27,269 nt of DNA from an uncultured archaeon (GTDB taxonomy: Archaea; Iainarchaeota; Iainarchaeia; Iainarchaeales; 0-14-0-20-30-16): positions 1,524 to 28,792 of the forward strand of contig CAYZSS010000011.1 in NCBI GenBank assembly GCA_964480435.1, in the 5' to 3' direction. Made by a program: the position numbers and the translations under genes. Shown in pieces: positions 3,928 to 26,105 of this stretch (position 1 is its first letter; each line of letters starts with the position of its first letter). Below the pieces are notes generated by a model. That model saw only the letters and a program-made list of their open reading frames with translations, had not been told where the DNA came from and made no database searches.

Positions 3928-5115
3928 ATGGATAATTTGGGAGACAAGCAAGCAGTAGTTAATATTGGACTAATTGGTCACGTTGATCATGGTAAAACCA
4001 GTGTAACTAAAATGCTGTCTGGCAAATGGACCGATACTCATTCTGAAGAACTTAAAAGAGGAATATCTATTAGATTAGGTTTTGCTGATACTAGTTTTTA
4101 TCTTTGCCCTAAATGTAATAGTTATGGTACTGATGAAAAATGTAGTTGTGGTGGCAAAGCAACATTTTTACGAAGAGTTTCTTTTGTTGATGCTCCAGGT
4201 CACGAAACACTAATGGCAACTATGCTAAGTGGTTCAACAGTTATGGATGGGGCTTTATTAATTATAGCGGCAAATGAAGAATGCCCTCAACCGCGAACAA
4301 AAGAACACCTTCTGGCAATTAATATGGCTGGGGTAAAGAATGTTGTTGTTGTACAAAATAAAGTTGATTTGGTAGATAAAGAGAAAGCTTTAATAAATTA
4401 TAAGCAAATAAAAGGATTTTTAAAAGAAGTGGGCTATGAAAACACCCCGATAATACCGATTTCTGCAAATATGGGTTTAAATAAATCTGGATTAATTCAG
4501 GCAATGGAAGAAGTAATAAAAACTCCTAAACGTGATGAAAAAGCAGATTTATTTATGTGGGTTGTAAGATCTTTTGATGTAAATAAACCCGGCGCAGATA
4601 TTAGCGAATTAAAAGGTGGAGTTTTAGGTGGTACAATAGTAAAAGGACTTCTAAAAGTGGGAGATGAAATTGAAATATCTCCTGTGGATGGGGGAAAATT
4701 GATTACTAAAGTAACTAGCTTAAGAACAGAGAAAGGAGAATTAGAAATTGCTAGACCTGGTGGATTAGTTGCTGTTGCTACTGAATTAGATTCAGCAATG
4801 ACATTTAATGATTCAATGAAAGGAAAAGTAGTTGGCGCTAATGGGAAATTACCTGAACCGGTATCCCAAATAGAATTAGAAGTAACCTCTTTAGAAAGAG
4901 AATTAATGAAATTTGATAAAGATATTTTTATTAATGAACCTTTGGTTTTAACTATTGGAACAAGCACAAATTTAGGTGTTGTTAGTGCAATACAAAAAAA
5001 TAAAATAAAGGTTAATTTGCGATTAAAAGCAATAGTGCAAAAAGAACAAAATGTGGCAATAAGTAGAAATTTCCAGAACGGCTGGCATCTTTATGGATAT
5101 GGAAAATGTTTATGA
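3928..5115 (+). CDS. eif2g: Translation initiation factor aIF2 gamma subunit
   Basis: GHVDHGKTS, DAPGHE and NKVD GTPase motifs, plus the zinc knuckle CPKCNSYGTDEKCSCGG. Confidence 0.95.
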   Translation: MDNLGDKQAVVNIGLIGHVDHGKTSVTKMLSGKWTDTHSEELKRGISIRLGFADTSFYLCPKCNSYGTDEKCSCGGKATFLRRVSFVDAPGHETLMATMLSGSTVMDGALLIIAANEECPQPRTKEHLLAINMAGVKNVVVVQNKVDLVDKEKALINYKQIKGFLKEVGYENTPIIPISANMGLNKSGLIQAMEEVIKTPKRDEKADLFMWVVRSFDVNKPGADISELKGGVLGGTIVKGLLKVGDEIEISPVDGGKLITKVTSLRTEKGELEIARPGGLVAVATELDSAMTFNDSMKGKVVGANGKLPEPVSQIELEVTSLERELMKFDKDIFINEPLVLTIGTSTNLGVVSAIQKNKIKVNLRLKAIVQKEQNVAISRNFQNGWHLYGYGKCL

Positions 5116-17618: not shown

Positions 17619-18845
17619 ATGCGAGAACATATTTCTAAATTTTCACTGTTTTTAGCTGTTATTTCATCGGTAATAGGGCTTGGGCTTATTTGGAGATTTC
17701 CTTACTTGATGGGGGGTAGTGGTGGCTCTGCATTTTTATTTTTGTATTTGTTTGCAGTAATTGTTCTTGGGGTACCGTTAATATTTTTTGAACTTTATTT
17801 GGGCCAAAAGTATAAAACTACTATTATTTGTTTGTTTAGAGAAAAACTAAAGAAGAAATGGTCTGTGATTGTGCCTGGTTTTTTGTTACTAGTTTCTTTT
17901 GGTATTTTGACCTATTATTCTGTTGTAACTTCTTGGACATTGGGTTATGCAATTATGTTACCCTTCGGATATCATACTTTTAGTTCTTATCTTGGAAGTT
18001 CATTAATGTATATTGCTTTTTTCCTAACTTTATTTTTGCTTTACTTTGTAGTGAGGCTTGGATTAAATAAAGGAATAGACAAACTTAACAAAATCGCTGC
18101 TACTTTTTTTGTAATATTTTTAATTGTTCTGTTGTTCTTTGCAATAAAATCCCTTGGCTTTATAACAGCAATAAAATATTTTTTTAATTTTGATTATTCT
18201 CTAATTAATTTTAACACAATTGTAATGGCTTTTGGTCATGCTTTGTTTTCTTTGTCTTTGGGGTTGGGAATACTTTTAACTTTTTCAAGTTATTCTGATA
18301 AGGAGAACCTTAATCCAACAATTTATGGTGTTGTTATAATTAATATACTTGTATCTCTTATAATTGGGGTAATAATATACGCATTTTTATTTTCTTTTGG
18401 GTTAAGTGAAACGGTAGGCCCTAGCCTGATTTTTAATGTGCTGCCTCTGGTTTTTCAAAATTATCTTTTATTTGGTTGTTTGTTTTTTGTTCTTGTTTTT
18501 TTAGCGGGTTTTACTTCTGTGATTTCTTTATTTGAACTAATAATCTCTTCACTTGTGGACTATTTTAAAATAAAAAGAAAAAAAATAGACTTGTTTTTTA
18601 TCTGTCTTCTGGCATTATTCTCTTTGATTCCTTTGCTTTGTCCTGATTCTATAGAAACATTGGATGCTATCTTTGGTTCCTACTTAACTATTTTTGGGGC
18701 TTTTTTATTTTTGCTTTCTTTTTTGTTGTTTGCTAAATGGTTTTCGCCAGTAAAAAACAGATTATATAAGATTTACTATATATTATTGTATGTAGATTTA
18801 GTAATTTTACTAATTTTGTTAATTATTTCAATTTTTATTTGGTGA
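17619..18845 (+). CDS. Sodium:neurotransmitter symporter (SNF/NSS, LeuT-fold) family transporter
   Basis: TM1 signature GLGLIWRFPYLMGGSGGSAFLFLYLFAVIVLGVPLIFFELYLGQ; multi-pass hydrophobic protein. Confidence 0.85.
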   Translation: MREHISKFSLFLAVISSVIGLGLIWRFPYLMGGSGGSAFLFLYLFAVIVLGVPLIFFELYLGQKYKTTIICLFREKLKKKWSVIVPGFLLLVSFGILTYYSVVTSWTLGYAIMLPFGYHTFSSYLGSSLMYIAFFLTLFLLYFVVRLGLNKGIDKLNKIAATFFVIFLIVLLFFAIKSLGFITAIKYFFNFDYSLINFNTIVMAFGHALFSLSLGLGILLTFSSYSDKENLNPTIYGVVIINILVSLIIGVIIYAFLFSFGLSETVGPSLIFNVLPLVFQNYLLFGCLFFVLVFLAGFTSVISLFELIISSLVDYFKIKRKKIDLFFICLLALFSLIPLLCPDSIETLDAIFGSYLTIFGAFLFLLSFLLFAKWFSPVKNRLYKIYYILLYVDLVILLILLIISIFIW

Positions 18846-18850
18846 CATTA

Positions 18851-19909
18851 ATGCAAAACATTTTGGGGAGAGTATTGGCAGAAGAACTTTATGGTCTTAG
18901 TGCCCTTCTTAGTTCAAAATATGAAACCAATCTTAGCAGGGTTATTGAATTAATTTTTTCTACAATTAAAGATGTAGATTATGTGGGGATATATCTTCTT
19001 GATAAAGATGTTTTAATTAATTTAGCAAGTGAGTCAGTATCAAAAAAAGAAAAGGAAGAGGATGAGGATATTGATCTTAATCAAATTAATCCCGAAGTAT
19101 ATTATATTACAAAAGCAATAACAAAAAAATTGTTTATCTCATTTTATCCGGAAAAAGATAAGAATATTGCATATTACTATGATTTTGTACCGTATAATTT
19201 TGCATATTCAAAAAAAATTAAAGATAAAAAGTTTGAACAAAGCACAATGTTTATTCCTCTTATTTTTAATAGCTCTGTGATTGGTTTGATAAAAATTTCA
19301 GGGAAAGATTTGCTCCTTAATAAATTATCTAAAAAAACAAAAACAACTGATTCAATCTTATCTACTGCAATATATTTAGCATCTATTTCTAGGTTTTTGG
19401 CTTCAATTTTAGATAAACAATTGGACCCACTAACAAAGGTATCTAACCGTAGGTCTTTTGAAATTGCTTTTAGTGATAGAGTAGAAGAATATAATAAAAA
19501 AAAGGCTCCATTTTCATTGCTGATTCTAGATATTGATTTTTTTAAGAAAGTAAATGATACGCATGGCCATCTTGCTGGAGACAATGTTTTAAGAAAGCTT
19601 TCAAGTATTCTTTTGGAAAATCTACGCTCGTCCACTGGTAAAAACTTGGATCTTATTTGCAGGTGGGGTGGAGAAGAATTTATTATTCTTCTGGGTAGCT
19701 CTGATTTAGAAGCAGCAAAAGTATTTGCTGAGCGCCTGCGTAAATCTGTAGAAAATGCTGAATTCTCTACAGGAAAAATAACAATTAGTGTTGGAGTGGT
19801 GGGGGCAAAAGAACTTAGTGAAGTAACTCCGGACTTAATGGTTTCTCTTGCAGACGAAAGATTGTATAAAGCGAAAGATGCAGGACGAAATAGAATTGTT
19901 GCAAAATAA
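18851..19909 (+). CDS. GGDEF-domain diguanylate cyclase with an uncharacterised N-terminal region
   Basis: DPLTKVSNRRSF, LDIDFFKKVNDTHGHLAGDNVL and RWGGEEF (19667-19681), followed by LYKAKDAGRNR. The ATG lies 6 nt after the transporter stop. Confidence 0.9.
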   Translation: MQNILGRVLAEELYGLSALLSSKYETNLSRVIELIFSTIKDVDYVGIYLLDKDVLINLASESVSKKEKEEDEDIDLNQINPEVYYITKAITKKLFISFYPEKDKNIAYYYDFVPYNFAYSKKIKDKKFEQSTMFIPLIFNSSVIGLIKISGKDLLLNKLSKKTKTTDSILSTAIYLASISRFLASILDKQLDPLTKVSNRRSFEIAFSDRVEEYNKKKAPFSLLILDIDFFKKVNDTHGHLAGDNVLRKLSSILLENLRSSTGKNLDLICRWGGEEFIILLGSSDLEAAKVFAERLRKSVENAEFSTGKITISVGVVGAKELSEVTPDLMVSLADERLYKAKDAGRNRIVAK

Positions 19910-20043: not shown

Positions 20044-20168
20044 TGTTTGCCATATAAAGATATTTTATAAAAAATTAACATAGCAAAATGTTTTGCTGTG
20101 ACTTTTTTGTGGGTTTTCTCAATTTTTGAGAACCATAACATGATTACCTAAGATTTTTTAGGTAGGAT

Positions 20169-20180
20169 GTAGGTTGTTAT
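20169..20180 (+). other. 5' strand of the 16S processing helix (pairs with 21778-21789)
   Basis: GTAGGTTGTTAT is perfectly complementary to ATAACAACCTAC, which directly abuts the tRNA-Ala 5' end. Confidence 0.6.
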
Positions 20181-20267
20181 TAAGAACGATGCAAGATACA
20201 AAATCAATATCTGTGTAAGATAATAATAAAGCCAATTCTTGAAAATAATAATTGCGACTAATTTTAG

Positions 20268-21751
<1,484 letters not shown>

Positions 21752-21789
21752 TCTGAAAAAATATCTTGTTGTTTATTATAACAACCTAC

Positions 21790-21966
21790 GGGCTCATAGC
21801 TCAATTGGGAGAGCGCTGCCCTTGCATCATTATAGGATTAGGGGGATGGTTTGCAAGGATAAGGGTTATCAAGCGAAAGCGAAGATAGCCTAAGTTTTGG
21901 CAGACCGTGCCTTTTTCTAAAAGGCTGGTAAGGCAGAGGCTGCGGGTTCAATTCCCGCTGAGTCCA
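21790..21966 (+). tRNA. tRNA-Ala(UGC) with a 104-nt intron at the canonical 37/38 position; CCA not encoded
   Basis: Acceptor GGGCTCA/TGAGTCC with the G3:U70 Ala identity pair. D arm GCTC-AATTGGGA-GAGC, anticodon stem CTGCC/GGCAG, loop CTTGCA|intron|A, T arm GCGGG-TTCAATT-CCCGC. Confidence 0.9.
21827..21930 (+). other. tRNA-Ala intron (104 nt)
   Basis: It is bounded by anticodon-loop nt 37 and 38. It contains TGCAAGG complementary to the anticodon region CCTTGCA, a GCGAAAGC tetraloop hairpin, and the GCCTTTTTCTAAAAGGC hairpin (21909-21925). Confidence 0.75.
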
Positions 21967-22085
21967 TTGATGCTTTAATTTATTAAGGCATAAAATGGAC
22001 TTTCTTTAGCGAGCTATGTTTGTTAGAATAAGATTTTTTATTCTAGCGTAACTAGTGATATTCTTAATATATAATATCACATAGA

Positions 22086-22106
22086 GTTAGCATAGGTAAG
22101 TAAGTG
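22086..22106 (+). other. 5' strand of the 23S processing helix (21/21 complementary to 25807-25827)
   Basis: GTTAGCATAGGTAAGTAAGTG pairs with CACTTACTTACCTATGCTAAC. Confidence 0.75.
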
Positions 22107-24067
22107 TTAAGAAAACCCTAGTAAGCCGTCTGGTGGATGACTAGGTTCGAGAGCCGAAGAAGGGCGTGGCAAGCTGCGAAAAGTTCTGGCGAGGTGCATG
22201 CGACCTTTGAACCGGAAATACCCGAATTACTCCGAAAGGAGAGGACACGCAGGGAATTGAAGCATCTTAGTACCTGCAGGAAAAGAAAGCAAACGCGATG
22301 CCCCTAGTACTGGCGAAGGAAAAGGGCAGAAGACAAACTGAATCCCTGTAAGAAATTATAGGGAGATGTGGTGAGGTCTGGTTAGGGTCCTATTTTCTTA
22401 AGATGAAGACTTCTGGAAAGAAGCGCCAAAGAGGGTGATAGCCCCGTAATTATAAAGAAAAAGGATCTGACAGATACCGCGAGTAATACGCATTGGCATT
22501 TGCGTATGAACACGGGGGTGACCAACCCCTAATCTTAAACATTCTCTCGAGACCGATAGCGAACGAGTACCGTGAGGGAAAGTTGAAAAGTACCCTTGGC
22601 AGGGAGTTAAAAGCACCTGAAATCAGACGGTAATAGGCGGACATGGCATGAAAGGTGGAGGACTGAAGGAAACGAAGTCCTCTGTACAGTGTTGTGTCGT
22701 CCGTCACGAAGCACGGGCCAGGGAATTTATATTTGTGGCGAGCTTAAGAGGTTAAACCTCGTAGGCGTAGGGAAACCAAGTTGCCGCAACTTTTGTGAGG
22801 GCAAGGATGCTAATCCGTCTTTAGTCACAGGTATCAGACCTGAAGCCAAGTGATTTACTCCTGGGCAGGATGAAACCCTTTTTCAAAGGGGTGGAGGTCC
22901 GATTCCAGTACTAGACTAACTGTTTGGGTGACCTGGGAGTGGGAGCGATAAACTATGCGAACTTGGTAATAGCAGGCTCCATCTGAAATAGCTCTAAGGC
23001 TAGCTTGACTTGAGATTAATTGGTGGGTAGAGCACTGATCAAAAAGTATTGGGGAGAAATCCTCGGCTTTTTTGTTAAACTTCGAATCGCCAATTGTCGA
23101 AGAAAGTTGGAGTAGGGATCCGGGGGGTAAGCTTCCGGTCCGAAAGGGGAACAACCCTGCGCAAGGTTAAGGTCCCAAAGTATCTGCTAAGTGTAAATAA
23201 AGAGCGTCGTAATTCAAAAACAGAGGGGATGTAAGCTCAGAAGTAGCTATCATTTAAAGAGTGTGTAACAACTCACCTTCCTAGAATTATGGCATCAACA
23301 ATATACGGGGCTAAAGCAGATCACCGATACCTTGCAGATTGTACTGTGTACAAGATCTGGTAAGATGGTGTCCATATAGGGCAGAAGTAAGGGCGTGAGT
23401 TCTTATGGACCTGTATGGAATATGGATCCTGGTGGTAGTAATAGCTATGAGAGGTGAGAACCCTCTCCGTCGAAAGGGCTAGGGTTCCTTAGCACTGATC
23501 ATCAGCTAAGGGTTAGTCGGTCCTAACTCCTACCGTAAACCGAGTAGGAGGACAGGGAAACAGGTTCATATTCCTGTACTTAATAGATACGATTTGGTAA
23601 CAATTGACTATCTTTTGACCCATTGGGCTAGGGGGCGTATTCTACTCAGAATATCTAAACCTACTATGAGCTTGGAGAGTTGTAATGACGAGAAGAGCTT
23701 TAAGAGGTAACAGGGCGAAAGCTGCTCTCAAGGCCTGGTGGCCATGAAAAGAAAGATAGTAAGGACTCTATTAAACCGTACCGAGAACCGGGAAAGGTGC
23801 CCCTGGCTGAGAAGGCCAAGACGTATCGGGAGAATCTAATTAAGGGAATTCGGCAAACTAGCTCTGTATCTTTGGTATAAGGAGTGCCTGTTGTTGCGTA
23901 AACAGCAGGTATCATTAACAAGGAGGGCTCGACTGTTTATCAAAAACATAGATCCCTGCGAGTCCGTAAGGATTAGTATAGGGGTCGACTTCTGCTCACT
24001 GCTAGTACGTGAAAACCCTTTTCAAGGGGTCTAAGCGCTAGTAAAGAGCGGGCCTAACTCTGAGGCT

Positions 24068-24797
24068 CAACTAAATAATTATTTGAGAGTTTGGTCTATA
24101 GAAGGTTTGATAAAGTATTACGTTAGCTAAGGGTCTCATTAAACTTAGCTATATGCTGGAAGCCCAAAGCAAAGAACTACTGAGTAAGTGAAAATGTTCA
24201 ATGCGATGAGGGTAATCAGCAGGGAAGCGTGGTGTATATGATTGAAAACTACTATAAAAAAAGAAAACGCTTTTACGATTATGTTGCAGGATTTATTGAT
24301 GGTGAAGCTTCTTTTACAATAAGTGTAAAAAAAGAACCAACAACTAGATTTGGTTATGCTATTGATCCTGAATTTAAGGTTTCGCAATTAAAAAGCAAAA
24401 TAAAAGTTTTAGAATTTGTAAAACAAGCAATTGGTTGTGGAACTATTACTGAAAAATCAGGACAAGAAAATATGGCTGTTCTTGTTGTAAAAAATAGAAA
24501 GCTTATTATTGAAAAGGTAATACCTTTTTTTAGAAAACATAAGCTGATTGTAAAGGAAGAAGAGTTTAATAGATTTGCAAAGGTTGTATTTGCGTTAGAA
24601 AATAAAACACATCAAACTGAAAAAGGATTCATAGAAATTTTGAAATTAGTTTTTCAAGGATTTTCAGATGAAAACAGAAAATATAAGTTTGAGGAAATAG
24701 TAACAACTATGAAACGCCCCTCAGAGACTATACGCTAAGAACCAAAAAATGGTTAAGATATAGTCCAATCCTAGTAGTAATACTAGAAAAATAAAAG
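24068..24797 (+). mobile_element. Group I intron in 23S rRNA (H69/H71 junction, E. coli about 1923-1925), carrying a homing endonuclease gene
   Basis: The exons rejoin as TAACTCTGAGGCT|CTTAAGGTAGCG. The 5' exon ends in U and the intron ends in G. Elements: P TGCTGGAAG 24154-24162, Q AATCAGCAGG 24214-24223, R TCAGAGACTATA 24721-24732, S AAGATATAGTCC 24755-24766, P8 ACCA-aaaaa-TGGT 24741-24753, P9 CTAGTA-gtaa-TACTAG 24771-24786. The boundary has a 1-nt ambiguity (C at 24068 or 24798). Confidence 0.85.
24238..24738 (+). CDS. LAGLIDADG homing endonuclease, single-motif (homodimer-type)
   Basis: One LAGLIDADG motif, YVAGFIDGEASF; about 166 aa from ATG 24238 (the track ORF starts at GTG 24229). 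It lies between intron elements Q and R, and its last codons overlap R. Confidence 0.9.
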   Translation: MIENYYKKRKRFYDYVAGFIDGEASFTISVKKEPTTRFGYAIDPEFKVSQLKSKIKVLEFVKQAIGCGTITEKSGQENMAVLVVKNRKLIIEKVIPFFRKHKLIVKEEEFNRFAKVVFALENKTHQTEKGFIEILKLVFQGFSDENRKYKFEEIVTTMKRPSETIR

Positions 24798-26105
24798 CTT
24801 AAGGTAGCGTAATACCTTGTCGGTTTAATGCCGACTTGCATCAATGGAGTAACGAAGTCCTCGCTGTCCCTAATTAGAACCCGACGAAACAACTGCGTGG
24901 TGAATATGCCACGGAGTCCCAATGGGAGGTGAAGTCCCCATGGAACTTTACCACAATCTGTTGCTGTTTTAGAATTTTCGATGTGAAGCGTAGTTAGGAG
25001 TCTTCGAAGCAATTTCGTCAGGAATTGTGGAGACAAAAAATGGGACACTAACCTTCGAAAATTCTAAGACTCACCCTGAAAAGGGGACACCTGCAGAGTC
25101 GGTGGTTTGGCTGGGGCGGTACTCCCCTGAAAAGGTATCAGGGGAACCCAAAGGTCTGCTCAGGGGTGTTGGAAACATCCTGTCGAGTGCAAAAGCAAAA
25201 GCAGGCTTGACTGTGTTCCGCAAAGCAAGGAATGCAGATTCGAAAGAAGGGTTTAGTGATCGTCAGTACTACTTTGGTGGTAGTCTGGTCTGATAGTGAA
25301 GCTATCCTGGGGGTAACTGGGTTGTCGCGGGCAAGAGTACATATCGACCCCGCGGTTTGCTACCTCGTTGTCGGCTCATGGCATCCTGGCTGTGCATAAG
25401 CAGCCAAGGGTGGAGGGGTTAACTCATTAAAGCCGTACGTGAGCTGGGTTAAGAACGGTGCGAGCCAGTTTGTTTACTATCTGTTGGGACTGTCAATGGT
25501 CTGAAAGGAAGATCTTTCTAGTACGAAAGGAACAAAAGGTCGCGGCCTCTAGTGTACCAGTTGTCCGAGTGGGCAGCGCTGGGTAGCCACGCCGTAGAGG
25601 ATAAAAGCTGAAAGCATCTAAGCTTGAAGCCTTCCTTGAAAATAGACCGTTACTGTATCTTAGGATACACGAAAGCGCCGGTAGAAGACCGGTTTGATAG
25701 GCTGGAAATGTAAGTATCGAGCTTCGGCGAGATATTCAGTTGACCAGTACTAATTGCTTGAGAGGGTAACTTAATAAAATTAAAAAAATCATTCTTTTAG
25801 AATGGTCACTTACTTACCTATGCTAACCTATATTAAGCCTACGGGGTCGAATTACCCCGGAAAATTGTATTACCAAGGTAATACTGGTGCTCCGCACAAG
25901 TCTTATTATAGGAATTGCATTTTTACTTTCCTAATATAAAAATCGCATTTTTTATATTCTGAAATAATTTTGCAGTACACAAGCATACAAAATTACTTTC
26001 TTAATAATAGTCTGTTCAAATTTATGTTATCTCTTTTGAATTGATTTACTGCTTTGCCGTGTTTTCCCTGGGCTTTTTTAAAAAGGCTATTCTACATAAA
26101 AAAGT

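Follow-up and report, generated by a model that had tools for sequence, protein, structure and literature searches.

The 23S ribosomal RNA (rRNA) gene of an AT-rich uncultured archaeon very probably carries a mobile group I intron with an endonuclease gene of its own. The DNA analyzed (hereafter the window) is a stretch of 27,269 nucleotides (nt) from contig CAYZSS010000011.1, and the intron corresponds to positions 24068–24797 of its forward strand, a 730-nt insertion located after the base equivalent to U1923 of the Escherichia coli 23S rRNA. Judging from its sequence and from those of its relatives, the element is predicted to lack helix P2, to resemble subgroup IB4, and to encode a LAGLIDADG protein within the loop of helix P6 (L6). 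Its limits and identity are supported by an exact gap in an intron-less allele of the same operon (L100; loci of the comparison set are cited by such numbers), by partial matches to the Rfam group I model, and by covariation. A first-pass annotation of this DNA had proposed a group I intron rather than an archaeal intron of the bulge-helix-bulge (BHB) type, and both the covariation and the lack of a BHB at the junctions support that proposal.

The archaeal rRNA operon of the window was located with Rfam models, and comprises the small subunit (SSU) gene at 20268–21751, a tRNA at 21790–21966, and the large subunit (LSU) gene at 22109–25773. The LSU match exceeds the length of the Rfam model by about 680 nt, and the full-model archaeal LSU score over both exons is 2417.9 bits. 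In the local Rfam alignment, LSU model positions 1959–2008 correspond to window 24000–24049, and positions 2033–2064 to 24804–24835. The 24 intervening model positions are matched by 18 exon bases before 24068 and 6 after 24797; therefore, the model is continuous across the gap and 24068–24797 is a single clean insertion of 730 nt. The same limits, which the first-pass annotation had also drawn, are found in nature. In L100 (Ga0257142_1001059), the alignment with the window runs over 20090–24068 and then directly over 24798–25823, with exactly 730 nt absent. Identity between L100 and the window is about 99% over the 16S, spacer, and 23S taken together, and about 99.8% in the 23S alone, where seven mismatches are found in the whole gene (about 2.9 kb) and none within 600 nt of the junction. 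A further intron-less allele of this operon (window 20090–25823) is L145 (Ga0265603_1001532), which is 98.9% identical to the spliced 23S and likewise devoid of the insert. The exact rejoined sequence TAACTCTGAGGCTCTTAAGGTAGCG is uninterrupted in 65 metagenome contigs (L100 and 64 others). On the other hand, L010, an independent assembly (run SRR8437247), carries the insert and agrees letter for letter with the window across the two junctions. The operon is thus found with and without the intron in what is essentially one organism. As to the rest of these loci, most differences between L100 and the window are clustered in the 16S (20598–21155) and at 25423–25466, L100 retains the intron of the spacer tRNA, and L145 is 98–99% identical to the window operon.

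The boundary is ambiguous by one base, a C that is the first base of the intron and also the first of the 3′ exon; the limits that leave a U at the end of the 5′ exon and a G at the end of the intron were chosen because they fit the group I rule. The spliced junction in the RNA would thus read TAACTCTGAGGCU-CUUAAGG, within the ligated exon sequence CUCUGAGGCU-CUUAAGGUAGCG, and the 23S site of intron-less alleles of the L100 type is GGGCCTAACTCTGAGGCTCTTAAGGTAGCGTAATACC. The first bases of the 3′ exon, CUUAAGG (24798–24804), are the partner of the predicted P10 pairing, and the endonuclease target would span the junction in the intron-less alleles (as read in L100 and the 64 further contigs). 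The window junction, GAGGCU-CUUAAGGUAGCG, aligns with the E. coli sequence around U1923, AACGGU-CCUAAGGUAGCG. In 23S numbering, the insertion point is the penultimate base of the 3′ strand of helix 69 (H69), and the placement at the H69/H71 junction in the first-pass annotation has been corrected in this sense. The L1923 site itself, described there as of the I-CeuI type, was confirmed by the alignment, and it belongs to the same LSU/1923 class that is given for archaeal introns of this type in Table 1 of Nawrocki et al. (2018; PMC6125680).

Support for the fold comes from relatives that were gathered through homology of the endonuclease and not of the RNA; homologs of the open reading frame (ORF) were traced to contigs whose 23S gene is interrupted at this position. 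A genome scan added relatives from Micrarchaeota, Bathyarchaeota, Hecatella, Hermodarchaeum, Aenigmatarchaeota, Nitrosocaldus, and Thermoplasmata. Sixteen same-site archaeal introns were aligned with the ORF excised (alignment A2), and a structure drawn by hand (P1, P3, P4, P5, proximal P6, P7, and P8) was scored on it. Among its 38 pairs, 94.7% of 601 cells are paired, and half of the pairs (19/38) show changes on both sides. None of 500 shuffles reached the observed values, and only 39–50% of the cells remained paired when the partners were slid by one to three columns. Compensatory changes are found in four of the six pairs of P3 (99% of cells paired) and double changes in all five pairs of P8. 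In P7 every cell is paired and two pairs are compensatory, as illustrated by the replacement of ACUAUA with UAUAGU by ACCAUA with UAUGGU and by ACUGUA with UACAGU. The wobble U·G at the 5′ splice site (U24067·G24132) and the terminal G of the intron (omega-G, 24797) are both present in 16 of 16 aligned introns. In P6 and P9 the sequence and register vary between relatives while complementarity is kept in each of them, and the distal part of P6 is complementary in every relative.

In the window, all the elements listed by the first-pass annotation (P, Q, R, S, P8, a P9 hairpin with a GTAA loop, the U of the 5′ exon, and the final G) were recovered at the places proposed, with covariation supporting the core. 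The 5′ strand of P3, CUUAGC (24144–24149), pairs with GCUAAG (24734–24739), which includes the UAA stop codon of the ORF. The P element, UGCUGG (TGCTGG in the DNA; 24154–24159), forms P4 with the Q element, UCAGCA (TCAGCA; 24216–24221), and a U-A pair of this helix is exchanged for G-C in L014 and L015; covariation in the alignment supports the Q strand too. P5 (24162–24213), as read from the sequence, consists of GCCC (24162–24165) with GGGU (24210–24213), and is extended by GC with GC (24169–24170 with 24203–24204), GAAC with GUUC (24174–24177 with 24196–24199), and UACU with AGUG (24178–24181 with 24187–24190). The loop GAGUA and the A-rich strand of this extension are conserved, and the motif CUGAGUAAGGGAAAA is kept across relatives. 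The 5′ strand of P6, GGG-AA-GCGU (24222–24230), pairs with ACGC-CCC (24714–24720), which lies inside the final codons of the ORF. The R element (24721–24733), identified by Rfam alignment and covariation, comprises J6/7 and the 5′ strand of P7 (GACUAUA, 24726–24732) and encodes S-E-T-I-R; its counterpart, the S element AAGAUAUAGUCC (24755–24766), recognized in the same way, contains the 3′ strand of P7, UAUAGUC (24759–24765). Between them, the covarying P8 hairpin (24740–24754) pairs AACCA (24740–24744) with UGGUU (24750–24754). The P9 hairpin (24771–24786), with CUAGUA (24771–24776), UACUAG (24781–24786), and a GUAA tetraloop, was obtained from the Rfam alignment, and the P9 hairpins of relatives differ from it in sequence. 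No P2 is present, P1 being joined to P3 by six unpaired bases, AUUAAA (24138–24143). The helix is lacking likewise in 15 of the 16 relatives, and L012 has a P2-like hairpin. Introns without P2 have been described as typical of the subclasses IC2, IA1, or IB4 (cyanobacterial intron paper, PMC1995217). As regards the Rfam group I model (Intron_gpI, RF00028), it yielded two collinear partial matches, of 33.6 bits (E=1.1e-6; R-P8-S-P9) and 17.2 bits (P/Q region), with the R and S elements aligned to the consensus; the match is split because a 468-nt ORF interrupts it.

The exon strand of P1, GAGGCU (24062–24067, ending in the splice-site U24067), pairs with positions 24132–24137, and exon and guide covary. 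The internal guide GGGUCUC (24131–24137) is the 3′ strand of P1, and unconstrained folding closes P1 with it. In the 16-sequence alignment, the exon GAGGCU is accompanied by GGGUCUC or GGGCCUC (GGGYCUC), GACUCU by GGGAGUC, and GACCCU by GGGGGUC; in L019, by eye, GACCGU is accompanied by GGCGGUC. The first-pass annotation had offered two GGTCT motifs as possible guides, and this covariation favors the second (GGGUCUC, 24131) and not the first. The rejected candidate, GGTCTA (24093–24098), lies within an extension of the P1 loop (L1; 24069–24130), an irregular hairpin of about 60 nt delimited by comparison with relatives, most of which lack it. The corresponding bases of L001, AGGCUCC, run in the sense of the exon, with which they are unable to pair. 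Among archaeal relatives the L1 extension is specific to the window, L001, L002, and L003, most of the others having an L1 of 5–17 nt; other long L1 hairpins are found in some bacterial members of the family. Inspection also suggests a P10 guide, UAAG (24128–24131), 5′ of and overlapping the P1 guide, which would pair with CUUA (24798–24801) of the 3′ exon. By the same kind of inspection, this arrangement reaches 7 base pairs (bp) in L008 and L013 and 6 bp in L019.

In sense orientation, the insert contains a single sizeable ORF, which runs mechanically from a GTG at 24229 to 24738 (169 amino acids). Homologs begin at a Met equivalent to the ATG at 24238, which suggests that the true start is located there; the predicted gene (24238–24738, forward strand) would then encode 166 amino acids and end at the TAA stop codon 24736–24738. 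The first-pass annotation had recognized in the P6 loop an endonuclease gene with a single motif, and this was substantiated by one domain of the Pfam family LAGLIDADG_1 (PF00961; 65.9 bits for a cut-off of 23.1, E=6.9e-18, residues 20–119 of 169). The ORF has matches in the PDB down to E=7e-32, to each half of monomeric structures of the I-LtrI, I-OnuI, and I-SmaMI type; these double-motif enzymes match it twice, once per domain. Matches to single-domain structures include I-CeuI (2ex5, E=1.3e-18, residues 18–131) and the archaeal I-Vdi141I (3e54, E=1.7e-17). The acidic residue at position 8 of the LAGLIDADG motif is catalytic; in the window motif, VAGFIDGEA, it is Glu, and it is Asp or Glu in all ten aligned homologs. 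The ratio of nonsynonymous to synonymous substitutions (dN/dS) is about 0.1 relative to L001 and L003, with dS near saturation, and therefore the protein is kept by purifying selection. A Shine-Dalgarno-like motif, GAGGUG, lies just after P6 in many relatives, and the window has GGUG in its place. As had been noticed before, the end of the ORF (PSETIR and the TAA stop) overlaps the R element: its last eight codons (K-R-P-S-E-T-I-R) and the stop coincide with the 3′ strand of P6 (24714–24720), J6/7, the 5′ strand of P7 (24726–24732), and the 3′ strand of P3 (24734–24739, including UAA). In L006 a different frame is used for this RNA core (...APQRPYVGHTSRKQ), so it is the RNA that dictates the peptide tail. 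Overlap of ORF and core is a known feature of some group I introns.

Several observations weigh against this interpretation. The RF00028 score is below the gathering score (33.6 versus 50 bits), with zero matches to the window at the default threshold, and none of six relatives gave an Intron_gpI match at E≤0.001. The first-pass annotation had taken the lack of a significant covariance-model match as grounds for refutation, a criterion to be used with care for this model. In the survey of Nawrocki et al. (2018; PMC6125680), RF00028 found no archaeal intron, the model being insensitive for these introns; the sub-threshold score is thus a limit of model sensitivity and not a structural failure. 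In alignment A2, the proximal part of P5 and the third pair of P6 are poorly paired in register. The assignment to a subgroup goes no further than IB4-like, by analogy with the LSU/1923 introns of that survey. In addition, a perfect 8-bp hairpin can form between 24124–24131 and 24144–24151 (UAGCUAAG with CUUAGCUA), with the guide in its loop, possibly at the expense of P1, P10, and P3, in which case folding might be slow or protein-assisted. The hairpin is specific to the window, absent from the relatives examined, and transcribed about 580 nt before the 3′ strand of P3; it could have arisen by chance along with the L1 extension, or could act as a folding trap. Finally, it is from sequence comparison that we infer self-splicing, dependence on guanosine, and the activity and cleavage site of the endonuclease.

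The possibility of a BHB intron was addressed with a home-made script that searched for a 4-bp helix with a 3-nt bulge at either end, bordered by flanking helices, and with equal cleavage offsets at both junctions. No canonical BHB was found within 12 nt of the junctions of the 23S insert, and no relaxed BHB within 6 nt, in agreement with the failure of the first-pass annotation to draw such a structure. The relaxed scan recovers the intron of the tRNA-Ala gene of the same operon at the expected offsets (-2/-2), with the anticodon stem CUGCC with GGCAG, a central helix of CUUG with CUGG, and the bulges CAU and UAA. The strict canonical scan also misses the tRNA-Ala intron, and therefore only the relaxed scan has a positive control. 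In four relatives, relaxed BHB-like matches were found at offset -6/-6 and were discarded, as cutting there would not restore H69. The tRNA gene (21790–21966) has the anticodon UGC, a G3·U70 pair, and an unusually long intron of about 104 nt (about 21827–21930) at position 37/38, whose BHB is of the relaxed form only: the 4-bp central helix includes one U·U, and the inner helix is nearly missing. Close to the 3′ end, two copies of GGCAGA, 26 nt apart, make a reading with two introns possible. ARAGORN reported zero tRNAs, and the intron-containing tRNA-Ala was found by Rfam.

Removal of the insert by the splicing endonuclease EndA at a BHB, followed by ligation, would be in keeping with an archaeal host, with the presence of an archaeal rRNA-intron endonuclease (3e54) among the PDB matches, and with a BHB pathway that presumably operates in an organism with such a tRNA-Ala intron; crenarchaeal rRNA introns of this class (those of I-DmoI, I-PorI, and I-Vdi141I) may carry LAGLIDADG genes as well. 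Nevertheless, no BHB with matching offsets exists at the junctions according to scans of which the relaxed one detects the tRNA-Ala case, the conserved and covarying partner of the 5′ exon is the P1 internal guide and not the 3′ junction, and the full group I core is conserved, which makes a BHB intron very unlikely indeed. A different objection concerns the competence of the ribozyme, which might no longer splice by itself and might need the LAGLIDADG protein as a maturase or host factors, or might even be a decaying relic that is left unspliced or removed without ligation. Splicing is here a prediction, the tail of the ORF overlaps the core, L1 is unusually long, the competing hairpin at 24124–24151 may interfere, and the low G+C content of the intron (30%) implies weak helices. 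However, no helix of the core is disrupted, and the U·G pair, the omega-G, and the R and S elements fit the consensus. A working ribosome requires a contiguous H69, and the locus appears to be the rRNA operon of the organism. The intron-plus allele has also been recovered twice from independent data, once in the window and once in L010, and the impaired ribozyme can be regarded as improbable. Still less credit, practically none, is given to an artifact of assembly or binning in which a bacterial or organellar rRNA fragment with its intron was joined to archaeal DNA. Introns of the same family do occur at L1923 in many bacteria, and some mis-binned cases were discarded by Nawrocki et al. (2018; PMC6125680). 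Against the artifact, both exons follow the archaeal LSU model over its full length, the G+C content of the intron equals that of the flanking genome (30 versus 31%), the neighboring genes are archaeal (aIF5B, aIF2-gamma, Kae1, and PolB), and L010 is an independent assembly. The best named matches of the 23S are metagenome-assembled genomes of Micrarchaeota, at only 70–76% identity, which places the host no more closely than among AT-rich and probably DPANN-like archaea.

For a group I intron with the features described above, splicing and homing would proceed as follows. In the pre-rRNA, the guide GGGUCUC (24131–24137) would pair with the exon GAGGCU to form P1, and an exogenous guanosine bound at P7 would attack after U24067. 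The 5′ extension of the guide, UAAG, would then align the 3′ exon through P10, and the freed 3′-OH of the 5′ exon would attack after G24797, ligating the exons, restoring H69, and releasing the intron. The endonuclease, presumably translated from the intron RNA, would act as a homodimer on intron-less 23S genes (such as that of L100) and cut them at the L1923 site, presumably with the 4-nt 3′ overhangs expected of the I-CeuI/I-CreI type, and repair from an intron-plus copy would spread the element. Mobility is indicated by the existence of intron-plus and intron-minus alleles in nearly identical rRNA, and by the occurrence of the same lineage of intron and endonuclease at L1923 in many archaeal phyla and in bacteria. 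It is conceivable, and put forward only tentatively, that the intron is actively homing at present in a natural archaeal population, as part of an L1923 lineage exchanged between Archaea and Bacteria. In that case, it would offer a tractable natural system for the study of group I intron invasion and of cross-domain exchange in archaea with, probably, a single rRNA operon.

More distant members of the endonuclease family have been found elsewhere in the LSU gene, at L1931 in the archaeon L020 and in L081, and at L2593 in Actinomycetes and Omnitrophota (loci L039, L052, and L064 are also in the set). The range of the family over L1923, L1931, and L2593 and over both domains suggests site switching and cross-domain spread. 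L009 (Logan SRR32473236_18496) is a 2.5-kb contig with a bacterial-type 23S fragment in which three consecutive group I introns, each with a LAGLIDADG ORF, are found in a short stretch of domain IV. In L016 (Candidatus Hecatella orcuttiae), the 23S gene with the intron is followed, after about 130 nt, by a gene for archaeal RNase P RNA (4218–4519). In the window itself, an ORF of 356 amino acids (18839–19909, forward strand) with a GGDEF diguanylate-cyclase domain (E=2.5e-38) is located just upstream of the rRNA operon, among typically archaeal genes (aIF5B, aIF2-gamma, Kae1, PolB, and TrmB). To our knowledge, proteins of cyclic di-GMP signaling are rare in archaea.

The window adds a well-delimited and comparatively validated archaeal group I intron, for which the corresponding intron-less allele is available from an almost identical organism, and this allele provides both the exact natural target of the putative endonuclease and a clean before-and-after pair for work on splicing and homing. 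The case also shows how archaeal introns with an ORF escape the generic Rfam model for group I; therefore, rRNA annotation pipelines will keep mislabeling them without subgroup models or comparative checks. As for novelty, the view that group I introns are still rarely reported in archaea, expressed in the first-pass annotation, is outdated. In all, 39 archaeal group I introns were reported by Nawrocki, Jones, and Eddy (2018; NAR 46:7970, PMC6125680), ten of them of the IB4 type at LSU/1923, and 21 of the 39 carry LAGLIDADG ORFs. Their hosts include DPANN phyla, Thaumarchaeota, Aigarchaeota, and Euryarchaeota, and some share the host gene with BHB introns. The LSU/1923 examples include IB4.18 and IB4.20 (Micrarchaeota), IB4.28 (Aenigmarchaeota), and IB4.11 and IB4.13 (Thaumarchaeota). 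These introns, as described there, have the same host gene and position as the window intron, and those that bear ORFs are of similar size (687–757 nt); relatives from Micrarchaeota, Aenigmatarchaeota, Bathyarchaeota, Nitrosocaldus, and others share its whole fold. By length, the window intron is none of the 39 in that list (none measures 730 nt), and it differs from them, so far as they are described there, in the P1-loop extension of about 60 nt. A pair of alleles with and without the intron, about 99.8% identical in the 23S, also goes beyond the part of that survey consulted here. The window intron is therefore a new example of a kind known since 2018, and leaves the current picture of archaeal intron biology unchanged.

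Outside Archaea, one counterpart is Ce.LSU.5, the group I intron of the chloroplast 23S gene of Chlamydomonas eugametos that encodes I-CeuI. Both introns occupy the homologous site and both endonucleases have a single LAGLIDADG motif; the host is a chloroplast in one case and an archaeon in the other, and I-CeuI is longer (a chain of 207 residues with an N-terminal extension). The I-CeuI site, TAACTATAACGGT-CCTAAGGTAGCGA, compares with TAACTCTGAGGCT-CTTAAGGTAGCG in the window. The exon differs from the I-CeuI site at four positions of H69, and thus the target specificity must differ. In addition, I-CeuI is not the best PDB match of the window ORF, a place taken by domains of monomeric enzymes of the I-LtrI, I-OnuI, and I-SmaMI type. 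A further group comprises the bacterial L1923 introns (Acidobacteriota, Ignavibacteria, Patescibacteria, and others; L021–L057), which share the site, have the ORF in L6, and encode endonucleases that are 34–45% identical. In these the guide has changed in step with the bacterial exon (AACGGU with GGGCCGUU), and some of them also have long P1-loop hairpins; their hosts are bacterial rRNAs, in which the 3′ exon begins with CCUAAGG instead of the CUUAAGG of the window. Finally, the BHB rRNA introns that encode I-DmoI, I-PorI, I-ApeI, and I-Vdi141I share with the window intron an archaeal 23S host and a LAGLIDADG gene, although they have no ribozyme core and are excised by EndA at a BHB, whereas the window intron has a full group I core and no BHB.

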